Of a stretch of 64,000 nt of DNA, positions 13,842 through 61,109 are shown in pieces. The position numbers and the translations under genes were made by a program. The notes under the pieces were generated by a model that had not been told where the DNA came from, ran no database searches, and was given only the letters and a program-made list of their open reading frames with translations. Source of the DNA: TPA_inf: Saccharomyces (lineage: Eukaryota); the NCBI GenBank assembly GCA_000146045.2, contig BK006938.2, positions 448,001-512,000 of the forward strand, read 5' to 3'. Every line of letters starts with the position of its first letter. Positions within the stretch are counted from its first letter, which is position 1.

Positions 13842-14516
13842 ATGTCTGTTATTAATTTCACAGGTAGTTCTGGTCCATTGGTGAAAGTTTGCGGCTTGCA
13901 GAGCACAGAGGCCGCAGAATGTGCTCTAGATTCCGATGCTGACTTGCTGGGTATTATATGTGTGCCCAATAGAAAGAGAACAATTGACCCGGTTATTGCA
14001 AGGAAAATTTCAAGTCTTGTAAAAGCATATAAAAATAGTTCAGGCACTCCGAAATACTTGGTTGGCGTGTTTCGTAATCAACCTAAGGAGGATGTTTTGG
14101 CTCTGGTCAATGATTACGGCATTGATATCGTCCAACTGCATGGAGATGAGTCGTGGCAAGAATACCAAGAGTTCCTCGGTTTGCCAGTTATTAAAAGACT
14201 CGTATTTCCAAAAGACTGCAACATACTACTCAGTGCAGCTTCACAGAAACCTCATTCGTTTATTCCCTTGTTTGATTCAGAAGCAGGTGGGACAGGTGAA
14301 CTTTTGGATTGGAACTCGATTTCTGACTGGGTTGGAAGGCAAGAGAGCCCCGAAAGCTTACATTTTATGTTAGCTGGTGGACTGACGCCAGAAAATGTTG
14401 GTGATGCGCTTAGATTAAATGGCGTTATTGGTGTTGATGTAAGCGGAGGTGTGGAGACAAATGGTGTAAAAGACTCTAACAAAATAGCAAATTTCGTCAA
14501 AAATGCTAAGAAATAG
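13842..14516 (+). CDS. TRP1: Phosphoribosylanthranilate isomerase, 224 aa
   Basis: MSVINFTGSSGPLVKVCGL PRAI fold. EcoRI site 103 bp upstream of the ATG, as in the classic TRP1 fragment. Confidence 0.97.
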   Translation: MSVINFTGSSGPLVKVCGLQSTEAAECALDSDADLLGIICVPNRKRTIDPVIARKISSLVKAYKNSSGTPKYLVGVFRNQPKEDVLALVNDYGIDIVQLHGDESWQEYQEFLGLPVIKRLVFPKDCNILLSAASQKPHSFIPLFDSEAGGTGELLDWNSISDWVGRQESPESLHFMLAGGLTPENVGDALRLNGVIGVDVSGGVETNGVKDSNKIANFVKNAKK

Positions 14517-14606
14517 GTTATTACTGAGTAGTATTTATTTAAGTATTGTTTGTGCACTTGCCTGCAGGCCTTTTGAAAAGCAAGCATAAAAGATCTAAAC
14601 ATAAAA
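14494..14606. other. ARS1: Replication origin ARS1 (ARS416) core: A element/ACS TTTTATGTTTA on the minus strand (14596-14606), B1-B2 between, and the B3 ABF1 site TCGTCAAAAATGCTAAGA (14494-14511) inside the TRP1 3' end
   Basis: Exact 11/11 ACS. The surrounding AGATCTAAACATAAAATCTGTAAAATAACAAGATG is the textbook ARS1 sequence with its BglII site. Numbering from the upstream EcoRI site (13739) puts the ACS at 858-868, as published. Confidence 0.92.
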
Positions 14607-15145
14607 TCTGTAAAATAACAAGATGTAAAGATAATGCTAAATCATTTGGCTTTTTGATTGATTGTACAGGAAAATATACATCGCAGGGGGTTGACTTTTA
14701 CCATTTCACCGCAATGGAATCAAACTTGTTGAAGAGAATGTTCACAGGCGCATACGCTACAATGACCCGATTCTTGCTAGCCTTTTCTCGGTCTTGCAAA
14801 CAACCGCCGGCAGCTTAGTATATAAATACACATGTACATACCTCTCTCCGTATCCTCGTAATCATTTTCTTGTATTTATCGTCTTTTCGCTGTAAAAACT
14901 TTATCACACTTATCTCAAATACACTTATTAACCGCTTTTACTATTATCTTCTACGCTGACAGTAATATCAAACAGTGACACATATTAAACACAGTGGTTT
15001 CTTTGCATAAACACCATCAGCCTCAAGTCGTCAAGTAAAGATTTCGTGTTCATGCAGATAGATAACAATCTATATGTTGATAATTAGCGTTGCCTCATCA
15101 ATGCGAGATCCGTTTAACCGGACCCTAGTGCACTTACCCCACGTT

Positions 15146-35860: not shown

Positions 35861-36026
35861 CCTTCTTAAACTGCAAAACACAGTCGTACGTAGGGTTGTT
35901 TGTTCATTTCTTTAACCTTCGACGGACAGATCTGGGGTACGTTCTAATAAAAGTAACCGCGCAGCCTATCTCCACGCGAAGGGGTAAAAGATCAAACAAG
36001 TCCTTAAGAATATACAAAAAGCTACA

Positions 36027-36037
36027 TAAATATAAAA
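36027..36037. promoter_or_regulatory. Candidate ARS consensus sequence (TTTTATATTTA on minus), possible ARS417
   Basis: 11/11 match to WTTTAYRTTTW in the AT-rich gap between YDR018C and GCV1. The origin assignment is from memory of the approximate ARS417 position and is not proven by sequence. Confidence 0.3.
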
Positions 36038-36162
36038 AAATAAAGGAATTGAGCGTAAGCATCTTTGTATTTGTCTTTACTAGATCAAAATAGCAAATTA
36101 TTTTTTTACTCTTTTTCTTTTCTTAATAAACGCATTATCAACTGAATATTATTTCGCTCAGT

Positions 36163-40796: not shown

Positions 40797-40870
40797 TGAT
40801 CCAACCGAGGTTCGAACTCGGGATCTTCGCCGTGTAAAGGCGACGTCTTGAACCACTGGACCATTGGACC
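40797..40870 (-). tRNA. tV(UAC)D: tRNA-Val (anticodon UAC), 74 nt, intronless
   Basis: Minus strand reads GGTCCAATGGTCCAGTGGTTCAAGACGTCGCCTTTACACGGCGAAGATCCCGAGTTCGAACCTCGGTTGGATCA. A 7-bp acceptor stem with one G-U pair, an A-box-like GGTCCAGTGG, a B-box GAGTTCGAACCTC, and anticodon loop CTTTACACG giving TAC. Confidence 0.93.
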
Positions 40871-41343
40871 GGAAACCCATTGGAAATGACTTAATCCCAA
40901 TATCGCTATATTAAATGTAAAATAACTTTTTCAGGATAATCCACAAGAGTGGTGCTTCTGTCATTAAACTAATTTTTTTAAGGCCTGTTCGCCTATTATA
41001 TGTCGAAAGTGTGTATTTCTTTCAAGTTATGCCTGCAATTCAAAGGACAGATTTATTTTACAGTGTCGACGACACCGTTTGAAAATGCAGATGCAGGACT
41101 GGGCACGTTTTACAATACGTATCGAGTCAAAAATACACTGATTTTGGTGATATTAGCTGCAGCATGGCGAATTTTTCACATATTACTGATAAGGATGGAC
41201 ATTATGTTTGACTTTTTTCCTTAGAGTAAGTATGGTCAGCAGAACAAAAAAGAGTTCCTACATTTATACGAAGGTAAAATTGTAAAAAACATGAATGCGG
41301 CCTATCCGGCTCGAAAATTGTTCCTCATATATATTAAAAAAAA

Positions 41344-56098: not shown

Positions 56099-56695
56099 TC
56101 AAAACTTTGCAACGGTTTCGTAGAAAGTCTTGCCTTGAATTTCGTGTACTTGTAATTCCAAGGCGGAAGGAGATCTTGAACCGTCACTGCCTGCAATGGT
56201 ACCCGCACCCCATGGTGAACCACCGTGAACTTCATCCATATTGGTCAATTCAGCGAAAACATTCTTGTAACCCAATGGGACAAAAATGATACCGTGATGA
56301 GCCAAAGTAGACAAAGAGTTCATAATTGTGGCTTCATTACCACCACCAGTTCCGGTGGAGACGAAACAACCAGCGACCTTACCATGCAAAGCACCCTTAG
56401 CCCACAACCCACCGGTACGGTCCCAGAAAGCCTTCCATTGAGCAGGGAAGTTACCAAATCTAGTTGGAATACCAAACAAAAAGGCATCATATTCTGTCAA
56501 CGTATCTTGAGTGGCAATTGGGTAATCTGGCTTTGGAGCACCGCCAAGCGCCTTAACAACTTCTGGAGACAACGTTTCCTCGACTTGATAAATGTCTGCA
56601 GAGCCTCCAGCGGCTTCAATTCCCTTCTTTTCTGCCTCTGCGGTGGCAGCAACGTGACCATATAGTGTGTAAATGATGATAGCTACTCTTGGCAT
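56099..56695 (-). CDS. PST2: Flavodoxin-like fold NAD(P)H:quinone oxidoreductase (WrbA family), 198 aa
   Basis: [14 protein letters not shown]... flavodoxin-like FMN-binding N-terminus, strong codon bias. The ORF track's 73-codon upstream extension starts at a TTG codon and is not credited. Confidence 0.9.
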
Positions 56696-56953
56696 TGTAT
56701 ATAATTGGATTCTTTTAACTAGAGAGTGGTGATGATTTATTGAATATATTATTCGACGATATTTAATTATATGAGAAAAACAGTAAAAAGAATAAGGCCA
56801 AATGCATTGATCGTTTTGCCGCTCGTTGACGTTTATATATATTTTATTGTTGTCCAGAGAGTAACTGTACTCAATTGTGGGAAAGGGGTTGCTAACGAAG
56901 CCAAGGCTTGCCAATACACTGCGCAGGTGCAGCCCCGCAGAATTATTAATTTT

Positions 56954-56960
56954 TTACTAA
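56954..56960. promoter_or_regulatory. Yap1 response element TTACTAA about 260 bp upstream of PST2
   Basis: Exact YRE heptamer. PST2 is an established Yap1-dependent oxidative-stress gene. Confidence 0.55.
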
Positions 56961-57233
56961 GACAGTCAAGAGACGGGTAAGCGATCGCAATGAGCGGCAA
57001 TAGGAAAAATTAATAATGAATCAGTCAGCGTCGCAAAAGCCACAAGTAAAACGATTTAAGTCCATAATGTTATCCAGGGAAACAAGCCAGGCGCACGCAC
57101 CTTAATAAGTTGGACACTCATCAAAACGCATGAGTCCCTCTGTTTCCAAGGCCAAAGAGGTGGCAGCCAATAACTATTAAGTTACGCTAGATGTTTCGAA
57201 CCACCCAGGTCACACTGTCATTATTAGTAGTAC

Positions 57234-57254
57234 ATATATATATATATATATATA
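57234..57254. repeat. (AT)10 microsatellite in the PST2-MRH1 intergenic region
   Basis: atatatatatatatatatata read directly. Confidence 0.95.
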
Positions 57255-57509
57255 ATTATCATTTAAAAGGAGATATATTACTGATAATCAAAATAGTAAA
57301 AACTACATCCGGAGTATGACAGTCCAACGATTATGTAGTATACTCCTTTTCACGTTTTTGCAAGAAATATTCCTTCTTCTTGCCATGATAAAAAGTTGTA
57401 TTTAGATATTATCTCGATTTAAGTGGCTCTTCTTTTATTTCTTGCTACTGGTGGTTTTTTTTGTTGTCTTTCGTCCCAAGACAGAAAAAGAAAAAGAAGA
57501 ATATAGGCA

Positions 57510-57520
57510 AAAATATAAAA
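57510..57520. promoter_or_regulatory. Candidate ARS consensus sequence (TTTTATATTTT on minus) inside an A-rich block; possible ARS418
   Basis: 11/11 WTTTAYRTTTW match flanked by a 60-bp purine/A-rich stretch, in a 3.2-kb gene-free region. Confidence 0.35.
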
Positions 57521-60146
57521 AAACAAAACAAAAGAGGAAAGGGAAATTAAAAGAATAGCAAATGCTTTAATCACACACTTTGCGCTTCCTACAAAATTAC
57601 GGCAATGATTTTGGATGTAACACGTAAAGATAAATAGCATAGTTCGCTTTCTTTTAAAAGAATAACTCTTGTTTCATGAAAGGATTTTGGTATGGCCCCG
57701 CAAAATCATTCAATTTTTTGTCATAATATCTTCTCTTTCACGATATAGATTCACGCAAGGGCGCTCACAGCAATGCTATCTCAATTGTAGAAATCTGCGA
57801 AGCGAGCAAAAGGCGCTTAATTTTGAATGCTCCAGTCAAGGCGAAAGAGTTTTTATTGAAGATGCAAGATCTTATGCAGATGTAAGGTTAGCGGTAATGT
57901 GTACTACATGCATAATTAATAAAGAAATCTAAATTACTTCGATGTGCTCATGCTCATACACCTAATTTTGTTTTCATATTTCAATGCCTTTACAAAAAAT
58001 TGAGAACACAGAGAAGGCCTCCGATTTAGAATAGTACAAAATATCTATTTTTTTGCATTTAGGCTCCGTATAGAGTAAGCGAAGAAAACCGCCTGATTCA
58101 AGTGATTCTGCTTTTTTGGTTTACTTTCCACGCAGATTGGCTGCTCTGTTTGTTTATTTGTTTTGGGAACGCGGTATTACCTCTCATTTCTCTGAGCGAC
58201 TTTTCAACTTGGCGCGCCGACATTTGCGCTTTTTTTTACAAGTTGTCAAACTCTCGGATTATTTAAAAAAAAGGGTTTTTTGCTCTTCTTGTTCCCATCT
58301 ACGGGTTTCACGGAAAAACTACCCCGAAAAAGAAGCACAGCTTTATAAAAAGACCGTATTAATTTGCTTTATTGGGTAATAACGGGGCATTCGGGACATA
58401 CAATCATACGCTAGATGCTGCGTGTAATAATTAACATTGTAAATCCCTATCTTTTTTTTTTATATAAGTAGAGTACTTTAAAAAGAGTGGACGACTGAGT
58501 TCATATACAAGCAGACGCCCTTTCATTTAATCTCAATCTTGTTTCAGGCCGGCTTTTGTCCATAACTGCTACGCTGCGTAAAAAAAAAATAAGAGAAATT
58601 GAAAAATATGGGCGTCGTCTAAGGATGGTAACTAGCTTCATTATACTATGGGTCTTCCTTCTTTTCCAACGCTTCCACTTTGACCTCAATCTCTTCTCGA
58701 TGGCCTAAGGTAGCAAGGTTGTGTTAAAAAAAACAAATACATCAGAGCAAGACACTTTTGGGTTTATTAGGTATTATAGGTATAGGTCAATTAATTTCTT
58801 ATCTTTTGTTGAGAGGATAAGGGTAATATTAGCGACCCTTAAGTAATTTTTGTTCTGTTTTACTTCAGTTTAATAAAAGCGACTGCCGCCGACCTTACTC
58901 CCTTTTTTTTATTATGCTCCTCGAGACAAGGTCGCTTAAAAAAAAAAAAAAGCTTAGTCAGACATGCAATCAGCGCAATTTATGGAAGCTGGAAAGGGGG
59001 GCCGCATTTTATGCACTATCTCTTGAATTCAAAAAGTAATTCAGGCCAAATTAACTAAGGATGCAAATGAAGCGAGTACTGAACGAATAGTCATGTTCTG
59101 AATTTCAAGCATTCAAATTTTGCTTTTCAGCGCTGTTCATCTTAGCGCTTACCATAAAGAGGAATACGTAATTCAACAACGGAGTTGAAAAATTTTTAAA
59201 ATCGTGCCGGTGTTAGTGAGAAGAGGATGGAGGGAATTAATACTTCGATGGAAGATGCAACTTGCAAATGTAGTCCGGTTACCAAGAGACCCAAACCTCT
59301 TCCACTTTACTATTTCTCCTTTGAGAAATATATCAGTTTGCGGTAATAGGTAATATGAAAAAGGCAATAAAAAAAAGAGATACTTGTCACCATCTCGTCT
59401 CCCTTTACCTTTTTTACTTAATCTTCTTCGTCGTCATCTGTTCCATCCCTTTCCTAGCTTAGTCTTCTCCGGCTAGTTCTTAGTGCGGTGAGCAAAAAAA
59501 ATAGCGTTTTTTTTCCCTCACCAGGACTTTTTTTGTTAACCGAAAATCGGCATCTCTAGTTTTCCTGGACAAAAAAGGCAAAATGGAAATAAACACTCAT
59601 ACGAATCAGTAAAGATGTAAATAATCGCAGTAACGACTGCACAAGGATGTCAGAAAAAGCAGTTTAATTCCAGAAGTGGTTTTCCAATTTATCACACATG
59701 TACATGAAGGGAAATGTATAAATACGGTCTTCGTAAAACAAAGGATCTCTTCACCTGGTTTCTTCATTTATAAGTAGTGTCTTTTTCGGTAACTTAAGAT
59801 ATATCCTTATTTCTTTCCCACTTCTCGTTATTTCTTCTTTTTCCCTTTTCAAGTTCTTCTTTTTATTTATTATTAAGCTTATTTTAATTCTTAGATCGTT
59901 GTCACTATCTTTTGTCCTTATTGTTAAGAAACATTGCGAAGAAAAAGAATAATAAAAGAAACTCAGAAAAAAAAAAAGTTTCCTCGAACAAAAATATTAT
60001 TATTTCAATAACTTTTTCTTTCTCTACATCCAATTTTTTGACCCTATTTTAACATTAATTTTTTGCTTTAATTTTAACTAATACCTAATTTCACTTAATA
60101 TCTAATCATCTTCCTTTAACCCACAGAACAAAGAAGAAAAATAACA

Positions 60147-61109
60147 ATGTCTACCTTTGAAACTTTAATTAAAAGAGGTGGTAACGAAGCCATCAAAATT
60201 AACCCTCCAACCGGTGCGGATTTCCACATCACTAGTCGTGGTTCCGATTGGTTCTGGACATGTTTCTGTTGTTACCTATTATTTGGTTTAATTTTAACAT
60301 TCTTAATGTTCAGAAAACCAGTCAATGACAGATTCTTTTACCTTACCGGTATTGCTCCAAACTTTTTCATGTGTATCGCTTATTTCACCATGGCTTCTAA
60401 CTTAGGTTGGATTCCAGTCAAGGCTAAGTACAACCATGTCCAAACTTCTACTCAAAAAGAACATCCAGGTTACAGACAAATCTTCTACTCTAGATTCGTT
60501 GGTTGGTTCTTAGCTTTGCCATGGCCAATTATTCAAATCTGTATGCTAGCTGGTACCCCATTCTGGCAAATGGCTTTCAATGTTTGTATTACTGAATTCT
60601 TCACTGTTTGTTGGTTGATCGCTGCCTGTGTTCACTCCACTTACAAATGGGGTTACTACACCATCGGTCTAGGTGCTGCTATTGTCGTTAGTATCAGTGT
60701 TATGACCACCAGTTACAACTTGGTGAAACAAAGAGATAACGATATCAGGTTGACATTCCTTGTTTTCTTCAGCATTATTATGTTCTTGTGGATTATTGCT
60801 TACCCAACTTGTTTCGGTATTACCGATGGTGGTAACGTTTTGCAGCCAGACTCTGCCGGTATTTTCTATGGTATCATTGATCTTATTTTGATGTGTTTCA
60901 TTCCAACTTTATTGGTTCCAATTGCTAACCACTTCGGTGCTGACAAATTGGGCTACCATTTCGGACCTAGTGATGCCGAAGCAGTGATGGCTCCAAAAGC
61001 TCCAGTTGCTAGTCCAAGACCTGCTGCTACACCAAACTTGAGTAAGGACAAGAAAAAGAAGTCTAAGAAGAGCAAGAAATCTAAGAAGTCTAAGAAGTCT
61101 GAAGAATAA
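60147..61109 (+). CDS. MRH1: Plasma-membrane 7-TM protein of the HSP30/YRO2 (microbial-rhodopsin-like) family, 320 aa
   Basis: Seven hydrophobic segments, strong codon bias, C-terminal tail KKKKSKKSKKSKKSKKSEE. Confidence 0.92.
   Translation: MSTFETLIKRGGNEAIKINPPTGADFHITSRGSDWFWTCFCCYLLFGLILTFLMFRKPVNDRFFYLTGIAPNFFMCIAYFTMASNLGWIPVKAKYNHVQTSTQKEHPGYRQIFYSRFVGWFLALPWPIIQICMLAGTPFWQMAFNVCITEFFTVCWLIAACVHSTYKWGYYTIGLGAAIVVSISVMTTSYNLVKQRDNDIRLTFLVFFSIIMFLWIIAYPTCFGITDGGNVLQPDSAGIFYGIIDLILMCFIPTLLVPIANHFGADKLGYHFGPSDAEAVMAPKAPVASPRPAATPNLSKDKKKKSKKSKKSKKSKKSEE

Follow-up and report, generated by a model that had tools for sequence, protein, structure and literature searches.

The 3,451-bp spacer between PST2 and MRH1 of Saccharomyces cerevisiae as a probable composite of catalogued elements

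Results

The PST2–MRH1 Spacer

PST2 and MRH1 are divergent neighbors within the window, the 64,000-nucleotide stretch that we analyzed, which is S. cerevisiae chrIV 448,001–512,000, such that 448,000 is added to a window position to obtain the chromosomal one. The placement is given by perfect ACS matches at 14,596 and 36,027, which with an offset of 448,000 fit the 55-bp intervals of SGD for ARS416 and ARS417; the window also contains TRP1 and, with its BglII site, the A element of ARS1. The distances of 635 and 1,567 bp in Parker 2017 place the PST2 ATG at chrIV 504,695 and the MRH1 ATG at 508,147, that is, at window positions 56,695 and 60,147. With 3,451 bp, the space between the two is the largest ORF-free gap of the window, the next being 1,807 bp and the median 402 bp. 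The original prediction, made from the letters alone, had described an unusually long gene-free region of 3.2 kb. Its unusual length is real but was underestimated, as the left edge had been set at 56,915, where a mechanically called ORF starting with TTG ends. Because the PST2 ATG (MPRVAII...) is found at 56,693–56,695 and T. globosa PST2 aligns to 56,102–56,692 (tblastn, 82.7% identity), the spacer extends over 56,696–60,146. The description as gene-free holds for protein-coding genes only, as SGD R64.4.1 lists two ncRNA genes inside. The features of the locus, in window coordinates, are as follows.

56,099–56,695, minus strand: PST2 (YDR032C) coding sequence, left flank (ORF and ATG; tblastn)
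56,696–57,150, minus strand: PST2 promoter, ~0.45 kb, with putative Yap1 response element and Reb1-type site (motif search, conservation)
57,234–57,253, no strand: (AT)10 microsatellite in a stretch largely specific to S. cerevisiae (pattern search)
57,330–58,580, minus strand: probably CUT494, cryptic unstable transcript directed leftward, crossing the ACS and reaching the left ARS edge (Parker 2017 supplementary table)
57,342–57,584, no strand: ARS417.5, replication origin (OriDB chrIV 505,342–505,584; published tables)
57,433–57,443 and 57,457–57,467, plus strand: inverted near-ACS matches, 9/11 each, candidate B2 element or second ORC sites (motif scan)
57,510–57,520, minus strand: ACS TTTTATATTTT, proposed ORC-binding element of ARS417.5 (11/11 match; origin list)
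58,100–58,500, plus strand: conserved block upstream of and at the SUT053 5' end, putative promoter (alignment)
58,334–59,774, plus strand: SUT053/YNCD0033W, stable transcript in tandem with MRH1 (SGD R64.4.1 Table 1, chrIV:506334..507774)
58,546–59,450, minus strand: SUT468/YNCD0034C, antisense to SUT053 and divergent from the MRH1 promoter region (SGD R64.4.1 Table 1, chrIV:506546..507450)
59,100–59,716, plus strand: strongly conserved DNA upstream of MRH1, candidate UAS, in which the 5' end of SUT468 and the 3' part of SUT053 lie
59,717–60,146, plus strand: MRH1 core promoter and long conserved ATG-free 5' leader (motifs, alignment)
60,147–61,109, plus strand: MRH1 (YDR033W) coding sequence, right flank (ORF; 99% identity to S. 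cerevisiae protein P0001)

On the PST2 side, the motif TTACTAA at 56,954–56,960, predicted from the start as a Yap1 site for PST2, is present, and CGGGTAA is found at 56,974–56,980; going by established consensus sequences, we take these to be a Yap1 element and a Reb1-type site. The block 56,932–56,962 is 89% conserved. In the alignment of five Saccharomyces species, the presumed Yap1 element is either TTACTAA or TTAGTAA and the GGGTAA is invariant; the element is also kept in the Saccharomyces locus L087. Conservation is only 14–19% over 57,196–57,395, where the (AT)10 repeat is located as had been described. The several poly(dA:dT) tracts noticed earlier amount to 12 poly(dA) or poly(dT) tracts of at least 8 nt within the spacer.

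The MRH1-proximal 1 kb, including the ATG-free stretch before the start codon, is 70–92% conserved. Over 59,100–59,716, the conservation is 70–92% per 100 bp and rises up to 97% within 59,488–59,649. The sequence TATAAATA is found at 59,717–59,724 and a second, TATAAG-type box at ~59,770. Based on these TATA positions and the 3' boundary of SUT053 in tiling-array data, transcription of MRH1 probably starts at ~59,775 and the leader would be ~370 nt long. The ATG-free run before MRH1 is 430 nt in S. cerevisiae and 409–450 nt in four other species (shuffle P = 0.006), and the stretch is 67–90% conserved; within it, ~80 nt at 60,030–60,110 are invariant. Folding of the leader gave a minimum free energy no better than that of shuffled sequences (z = +0.95), and the covariation term of RNAalifold was unfavorable (+3.56), with 1 of 46 pairs compensatory. 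The last ~1 kb of the spacer may be read as an MRH1 upstream activating region followed by a TATA box and a conserved, unstructured leader.

Noncoding Transcripts and the Deletion Strain

SUTs are stable in wild-type cells, and CUTs are stabilized in rrp6-delta cells. The original prediction had suggested unannotated transcription of this kind feeding MRH1. Noncoding transcripts do run over the spacer beside MRH1, but they are not unannotated any more: SUT053, SUT468, and CUT494 were annotated by Xu et al. 2009 and taken up by SGD R64.4.1 and the table of Parker 2017. Our account of the transcripts, like that of the origin below, rests on such published tables. The row of Parker 2017 reads "SUT053/468/CUT494 chr4 - 505330 506580 635 1567"; judging by the strand and by the SGD coordinates of SUT053 and SUT468, the interval 505,330–506,580 would be that of CUT494. 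As expected for SUTs and CUTs, the spacer holds neither a conserved ORF nor a known structured-RNA family.

Around the 5' end of SUT053, the block 58,100–58,500 shows per-position conservation of 68–80% in four other species and contains an invariant CGG-N10-CCG (58,310–58,325) and an invariant TATATAAG box (58,461–58,468), while the SUT bodies at 58,500–59,100 are only 45–68% conserved. The promoter regions of SUT053 and MRH1 have in common a 27-nt TATA-type motif; apart from this, a search for internal duplication within the spacer returned short low-complexity repeats only. The 3' end of SUT053 is where the start of the MRH1 mRNA is expected. SUT053 is transcribed rightward from the conserved TATA-containing block up to the MRH1 core promoter, and SUT468 goes leftward from the conserved region upstream of MRH1. 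CUT494 would be the unstable downstream continuation of SUT468, crossing the ACS and stopping at the left edge of the ARS, and the pair could arise by divergent transcription from the MRH1 promoter region.

A widely used ncRNA deletion strain affects more than the transcripts. The homology arms of the deletion primers map to 57,330–57,374 (plus strand) and 59,448–59,492 (minus strand), and the replaced segment is the following.

57,375–59,447, no strand: kanMX replacement in the CUT494/SUT053/SUT468 deletion strain (deletion-primer mapping)

The replacement takes out the ACS of ARS417.5, the deeply conserved block 58,100–58,500, and some of the conserved sequence upstream of MRH1. The published phenotypes of the strain are reduced MRH1 mRNA, changed expression of 137 genes with ergosterol genes down, and sensitivity to azoles, ethanol, and glycerol; the published account does not report ectopic rescue for this mutant. 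The link from the transcripts to MRH1 expression is confounded, because conserved blocks and the ACS are among the 2 kb of DNA deleted. The strain loses a licensed origin and conserved cis-regulatory DNA, and claims of trans function for CUT494, SUT053, and SUT468 therefore need separation-of-function alleles. The deletion phenotypes may not stem from RNA at all and, relatedly, the ATG-free stretch before MRH1 could be a cis-acting element of posttranscriptional control and more than promoter DNA; taken jointly, we consider these two propositions rather unlikely.

Loss of an SGL Gene and Conservation of Spacer Length

In T. globosa, the gene order is PST2–SGL–MRH1, with the SGL gene (PF08450) at 8,006–9,061 of the sequence L001. 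In C. glabrata, SGL is found only on the track of YRO2 (track B), arranged there as in T. globosa, and the spacer on the MRH1 track is 1,372 bp; the paralogous order on chrII is, we assume, RFS1–YBR053C–YRO2. The spacers of four other Saccharomyces species are 3,117–3,362 bp long. A metagenome scan with PST2 returned one S. cerevisiae contig, the other loci being from other genera or too short upstream (259 bp in L003), and a search with the MRH1 protein returned no other Saccharomyces species; the orthologous loci were reached via LYS14 and RAD28.

A pseudogene origin of the spacer, as the relic of an SGL/YBR053C-like ohnolog, fits the position, which is syntenic between the PST2 and MRH1 orthologues, but the residual similarity is absent and we rejected it. 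Searching the spacer with the T. globosa SGL protein (tblastn) gave noise only, and a two-sequence HMM scored below 0 bits on the six-frame translations of six Saccharomyces spacers, the control reaching E = 1e-222; the same HMM found nothing in the C. glabrata spacer. The scenario we favor is that an ancestral SGL-family gene lay between PST2 and MRH1 and that, once the whole genome had been duplicated, this duplicate track lost it, the space then being kept at 3.1–3.45 kb throughout the genus Saccharomyces. The spacer would be so long because the gene was lost and its space retained across the genus, and the loss would be old because it is common to C. glabrata.

A related explanation makes the long spacer mainly neutral debris of the decayed SGL gene, mostly unconstrained. 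It draws on the SGL gene that T. globosa has at the same spot and C. glabrata on the sister track, and on the low conservation (14–54%) of the PST2-proximal half at 57,000–58,000. We nevertheless find it improbable: the six Saccharomyces spacers have no similarity to SGL by tblastn or profile search, and after an old loss the C. glabrata spacer has shrunk whereas Saccharomyces has kept the full length. Moreover, ~1.4 kb of the spacer is conserved at 68–92% and known functional elements fill most of it.

The Replication Origin ARS417.5

The original prediction had proposed an origin in the spacer on the basis of an exact match to the ACS. The match is confirmed: TTTTATATTTT on the minus strand at 57,510–57,520 agrees with the consensus WTTTAYRTTTW in 11 of 11 positions, and the A-rich block described around it is found at 57,480–57,545 (68% A on the plus strand). 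A catalogued origin, ARS417.5, uses exactly this ACS, but the name given to it, ARS418, was wrong, as was its ranking as the best candidate of the window. Supplementary file 1 of Candelli 2018 lists "chrIV - 505517" as an ACS, belonging to the 228 confirmed ARSs of Nieduszynski 2006. The 11-mer has its 5' end at 505,520, 3 nt from the listed coordinate, and the convention of the list may differ. The chrIV-505 origin of Nieduszynski et al. 2006, ARS417.5, and the origin of the spacer are one and the same, and the origin was already known.

In S2 Table of PMC8443269, ARS417.5 has MCM ChIP values of 2017 and 46083, an Mcm2-ChEC value of 2,032,845, and a rad53 ssDNA S/G1 ratio of 3.35, comparable to those of ARS416 (ARS1), ARS417, and ARS418; among the rows listed there, the unnamed OriDB rows near ARS417.5 have ~250, ~5,000, and ~4,500. 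ARS417.5 is missing from the set of 343 SGD ARSs in S1/S4 of the same paper and is named in OriDB and in PMC11406185, which gives it as the annotated origin flanking ARS418 on the left. These data are consistent with ARS417.5 being licensed at about the level of ARS1 and also firing in hydroxyurea in rad53 cells.

The base composition around the ACS is asymmetric: 57,400–57,480 is 52% T on the plus strand, and 57,480–57,545 is T-rich on the strand of the ACS. Together with an inverted ACS-like element 3' of the T-rich ACS strand, this is the arrangement expected of an origin, at the level of sequence only. Further near-matches are found at 57,348 (10/11) and 57,625 (10/11). Read on the ACS strand, ARS417.5 has a T-rich flank 5' of the ACS; the B side, at lower coordinates, with its inverted near-ACS matches would be the place where the MCM double hexamer is loaded.

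An ACS or near-ACS is found at the orthologous position in all six Saccharomyces genomes in which the conservation proposed in the original prediction was checked. At the same aligned position, all 11 bases agree in S. cerevisiae, L087, and S. arboricola; S. kudriavzevii and S. uvarum have 10/11 and S. eubayanus 9/11. The flanks are conserved at only 14–41%. Between S. cerevisiae and L087, the ACS forms a 16-nt island of identity amid poorly conserved sequence. As three of the six species have an imperfect ACS, the origin itself may not be conserved throughout the genus.

A perfect ACS by itself is weak evidence of an origin, because the window contains 11 of them (3.56 expected from shuffles) and only 3 of the 11 were tied to listed origins. 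The match could accordingly be due to chance in AT-rich DNA, with 0.2–0.6 expected per 3.45 kb, and ORC could use another element inside ARS417.5, given the two 10/11 near-matches and the center of the OriDB interval at 57,463, off the ACS. We hold this to be very unlikely, as the comparative-genomics list that Candelli 2018 drew on proposes exactly this site (chrIV minus, 505,517) as the ACS, the identity island with L087 coincides with it, a perfect or 10/11 ACS is aligned to it in S. arboricola, S. kudriavzevii, and S. uvarum, and the strand asymmetry around it is canonical.

Coding Potential and Structured RNA

The small ORFs of the spacer, dismissed for poor codon usage in the original prediction, are not kept as ORFs in other species: none of the seven tested retains its frame or its stop. 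Searching Pfam with six of the small ORFs gave sub-threshold matches only (PI4KB accessory domain, E = 0.021; S1FA, E = 0.056). ARAGORN, Rfam at the gathering threshold, and Rfam at E ≤ 1 gave no tRNA or structured RNA in the spacer; the best Rfam E-value, 0.38, was for an enterobacterial sRNA. An unannotated protein-coding or structured-RNA gene might be suspected from the several ORFs of 60–87 codons and from SUT053, which is 1.4 kb long and stable. Such a gene is highly improbable, however, since the 87-aa ORFs start at TTG, the searches were negative throughout, and the SUT body at 58,500–59,100 has the low conservation given above.

Other Origins of the Window

Two further origins are inside the window, and the spacer origin cannot be singled out as its best candidate.

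14,596–14,606: ACS of ARS1/ARS416, beside TRP1 and the BglII site
36,027–36,037: ACS of ARS417, perfect match inside the SGD interval

The identification of the spacer origin as ARS418, truly an efficient early origin of chrIV, is practically impossible: ARS418 is a different locus at chrIV 555,240–555,404, ~50 kb to the right and beyond the window end at 512,000, its published deletion (custom coordinates 564,590–564,774 minus an offset of 9,368) covers 555,222–555,406, and the window contains no site for the ARS418 qPCR primer OJL3399 even with three mismatches allowed.

Discussion

We consider it very probable that catalogued elements together make up the 3,451-bp spacer and that it hides neither a gene nor an element of a new kind. 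The gap is ordinary, being explained by ARS417.5, three catalogued ncRNAs, and the long conserved MRH1 promoter and leader. From left to right, it would consist of the PST2 promoter with its conserved Yap1 element, ARS417.5, a bidirectionally transcribed middle and right part, and the MRH1 upstream region and leader. The origin and the ncRNAs are already known, and biologically nothing new is established on either. What is new is the loss of an SGL-family gene without a relic, the length of 3.1–3.45 kb conserved across Saccharomyces, the conservation of the MRH1-proximal 1 kb, and the absence of the origin ACS from the ncRNA deletion strain. Reading the sequence alone had found a true origin and true ncRNAs, with a wrong ARS name and without noticing ARS1 and ARS417.

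Compared with the published elements, the origin of the spacer does not differ from ARS417.5 in locus or element, and the transcripts are identical to SUT053, SUT468, and CUT494 of Xu et al. 2009 and SGD R64.4.1. Like ARS1/ARS416, ARS417.5 is intergenic, has an A/T-asymmetric flank, carries its 11/11 ACS on the T-rich strand, and shows a similar level of MCM loading. ARS1 occupies a short spacer at the TRP1 3' end and its B1, B2, and B3 elements were mapped by mutagenesis, whereas ARS417.5 has putative B elements and is crossed by a CUT, and its spacer is long and divergent.

Long promoters regulated by upstream or antisense ncRNAs include those of SER3 with SRG1, FLO11 with ICR1/PWR1, and IME1 with IRT1. 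The PST2–MRH1 spacer is like them in its multi-kilobase length, in the tandem sense transcript reaching the target promoter, and in the antisense partner. In the known systems, transcription represses or toggles the target, whereas the data for MRH1 consist of its reduced expression once 2 kb has been deleted, and loss of upstream activating DNA accounts for this equally well.

The PST2-MRH1 spacer

No other ORF-free gap in the window is as large as the spacer between PST2 and MRH1, at 3,451 bp compared with 1,807 bp for the next and a median of 402 bp. The original prediction was right that the gap is long but placed the left edge at 56,915, which is the end of a mechanical ORF extended to a TTG. 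The PST2 ATG (MPRVAIIIY...) is at 56,693-56,695 on the minus strand and ORF calling puts the MRH1 start at 60,147, so the spacer spans 56,696-60,146. Adding 448,000 to a window position gives the S. cerevisiae chrIV coordinate, with three independent anchors in agreement, and the distances of 635 and 1,567 bp from CUT494 in a published table (Parker 2017) lead to start codons at chrIV 504,695 and 508,147, that is, 56,695 (PST2) and 60,147 (MRH1). Once the boundary is corrected, the sequence observation is real: the (AT)10 repeat, the TTACTAA Yap1 site, the A-rich block (68% A across 57,480-57,545), and the poly A/T tracts (twelve homopolymers of at least 8 nt in the spacer) were all located as described.

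Features of the spacer (window coordinates)
56,954-56,960: TTACTAA, pattern in sequence
57,234-57,253: (AT)10 repeat, pattern in sequence
57,330-58,580 (chrIV 505,330-506,580), minus strand: CUT494, assignment inferred (Parker 2017 table)
57,342-57,584 (chrIV 505,342-505,584): ARS417.5 (OriDB)
58,310-58,325: invariant CGG-N10-CCG, conserved block at the SUT053 5' end
58,334-59,774 (chrIV 506,334-507,774), plus strand: SUT053/YNCD0033W (SGD R64.4.1)
58,461-58,468: invariant TATATAAG box, conserved block at the SUT053 5' end
58,546-59,450 (chrIV 506,546-507,450), minus strand: SUT468/YNCD0034C (SGD R64.4.1)
59,717-59,724: TATA box upstream of MRH1

The description "gene-free" holds for protein-coding genes, none of which was found, but SGD R64.4.1 annotates SUT053 and SUT468 inside the spacer, which is thus not feature-free. 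We found no tRNA genes or Rfam families in the spacer and no Pfam domains above cut-off in its small ORFs; of seven small ORFs compared across species, none is kept as an ORF.

Replication origin

The origin within the spacer is ARS417.5. The name ARS418, previously attached to it, belongs to a well-studied early origin at chrIV 555,240-555,404: the published ars418 deletion is given in custom coordinates (564,590-564,774), from which 9,368 has to be subtracted, and the ARS418 qPCR primer has no match anywhere in the window. The predicted perfect ACS is present as an 11/11 match, TTTTATATTTT, at 57,510-57,520 on the minus strand. A single perfect ACS is weak evidence for an origin on its own; the window holds 11 such matches against 3.56 expected from shuffles, and 3 of the 11 are tied to listed origins. 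The published signals at ARS417.5 are comparable to those at ARS416 (ARS1) and ARS418 and, among the rows listed, far exceed those of unnamed OriDB rows nearby (PMC8443269).

Published origin signals: MCM ChIP (two values); Mcm2-ChEC; rad53 ssDNA (PMC8443269)
ARS417.5: 2017 and 46083; 2,032,845; 3.35
ARS416: 2456 and 95883; 2.22 million; 4.98
ARS418: 2487 and 101951; 1.58 million; 3.02

PMC11406185 also takes ARS417.5 as the annotated origin on the left side of ARS418, and "chrIV - 505517", a position inside the 11-mer and on the identical strand, is among the 228 confirmed origins listed by Candelli et al. (2018) and oriented by the ACS that Nieduszynski et al. (2006) proposed. Strand asymmetry is canonical, the ACS strand being T-rich in the flank 5' of the ACS, and the B side carries inverted 9/11 ACS matches 43-77 bp from the ACS.

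The claim that ARS417.5 is the window's best origin candidate is wrong. It is one of at least three origins there, and the two others identified each have a perfect ACS and high published MCM signal.

13,842-14,622: TRP1 and ARS1/ARS416, ACS at 14,596-14,606 adjoining the BglII site
36,006-36,059: ARS417, ACS at 36,027-36,037

As one of the anchors for the chrIV placement, these two ACSs lie within the 55-bp intervals that SGD gives for ARS416 (chrIV 462,567-462,622) and ARS417 (chrIV 484,006-484,059; PMC8443269 supplement). As another, TRP1 (MSVINFTGSSGPLVK...) ends at 14,516 and is followed by cagaTTTTATGTTTAgatct, the ARS1 A element including the BglII site. A further perfect ACS match (40,912-40,922, minus strand) lies 42 bp from a tRNA-Val(UAC) gene (40,797-40,870, minus strand).

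Non-coding transcripts and the probable MRH1 leader

Non-coding transcription was also correctly predicted, with SUT053, SUT468, and CUT494 in the spacer, but the first two are not unannotated. The earlier interpretation, an origin plus non-coding transcription, is therefore right in kind, and everything central at the locus is already catalogued. On the minus strand, transcription sets out from the conserved region upstream of MRH1, passes along SUT468 and CUT494, and crosses the ACS to reach the left ARS edge; on the plus strand, SUT053 ends at the expected MRH1 mRNA start.

From the TATA box to the MRH1 start codon, 430 nt (59,717-60,146) are free of ATGs (shuffle P = 0.006), and an ATG-free stretch of 409-450 nt is found in all five species. 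This is probably a long 5' leader of MRH1, of ~370 nt if the SUT053 3' boundary at 59,774 is taken as the transcription start. The stretch is 67-90% conserved and includes a nearly invariant run of ~80 nt (~60,030-60,110); leader structure did not exceed that of shuffled sequence (z = +0.95), and no covariation was found.

Conservation among Saccharomyces species

Orthologous spacers
S. arboricola (L082): 3,332 bp
S. uvarum (L084): 3,362 bp
S. eubayanus (L085): 3,307 bp
S. kudriavzevii (L086): 3,117 bp
Logan contig L087: PST2-proximal 1,270 bp only

Conservation along the spacer (window coordinates)
56,796-56,995: PST2 promoter, 63-64%; invariant GCCCCGCA, TTAC/GTAA, and GGGTAA
57,096-57,895: ARS-containing interval, 14-43%
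58,096-58,495: conserved block, 68-80%; invariant CGG-N10-CCG and TATATAAG
58,496-59,095: SUT bodies, 45-68%
59,096-60,095: MRH1-proximal interval, 67-92%; peaks of 97% in windows inside 59,488-59,649

Conserved sequence clusters at promoters rather than SUT bodies, from which we infer that the RNA sequences of the SUTs would matter less than the DNA elements or transcription itself. The CGG-N10-CCG spacing is typical of zinc-cluster factors. A TATAAGTAG(A/T)GT motif similar to the TATATAAG box recurs at 59,770 by the presumed MRH1 start (repeat D4).

Conservation around the ACS is poor (14-41% per 100 bp). At the aligned position the ACS is perfect in S. arboricola and kept in the Logan contig, within a 16-nt island of identity, but falls to 10/11 in S. 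kudriavzevii and S. uvarum and 9/11 in S. eubayanus. The contig is nearer S. cerevisiae than the other four (identity 87% for the RAD28 CDS and 92% for PST2). Just left of the ARS, 57,196-57,395, including (AT)10, is 14-19% conserved with mainly gaps opposite in other species, and looks like a lineage-specific insertion or turnover.

A published deletion of the locus

A CUT494/SUT053/SUT468 deletion adjoining MRH1 has been studied, with the conclusion that the locus affects distant genes via its ncRNAs (Balarezo-Cisneros et al. 2021). The homology arms of its primers lie at 57,330-57,374 and 59,448-59,492, so that kanMX replaces 57,375-59,447. Lost with this interval are the ACS and most of ARS417.5, the conserved block at 58,100-58,500, and some of the conserved sequence upstream of MRH1; the main text of that study makes no mention of a replication origin or ARS, and ectopic rescue is reported only for SUT125, SUT126, SUT035, and SUT532. 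The locus may act on distant genes through its ncRNAs, but the deletion also removes the ACS and conserved DNA, and the reported rescue concerns other SUTs.

Gene loss and spacer length

Torulaspora globosa has the order PST2 (minus), an SGL-family gene (PF08450, 351 aa, minus), and MRH1 (plus), followed by LYS14, PRP6-like, YBR056W-like, and ARO3-like genes; genes of chrIV and chrII alternating in this way typically mark the whole-genome duplication.

SGL-family genes (PF08450)
L001:8,006-9,061: T. globosa (unduplicated lineage), between the PST2 and MRH1 homologues
L089:3,903-4,964: C. glabrata, YRO2 track

The REG1-RAD28-PST2-MRH1-LYS14 track of C. glabrata lacks the SGL gene and has a spacer of 1,372 bp, and the sister track retains flavodoxin-like, SGL, YRO2-like, and PRP6-like genes. 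Synteny in T. globosa and both C. glabrata tracks thus indicates that the SGL copy was lost from the MRH1 track, a loss that explains the long spacer; no relic was detectable in the spacer. The gene calls of the S. arboricola record lack MRH1, probably an annotation gap judging by a tblastn match at L082:13,054-13,947 to MRH1 residues 1-298 (93.6% identical). A word-indexed protein search with MRH1 missed the real, 84% identical orthologues of S. uvarum and S. eubayanus, so absence from that search is not evidence of absence. As the gene is missing from the MRH1 track of both C. glabrata and Saccharomyces, the SGL loss probably predates the Saccharomyces/Nakaseomyces split, and despite this loss spacer length is held at 3.1-3.45 kb in all Saccharomyces species compared.
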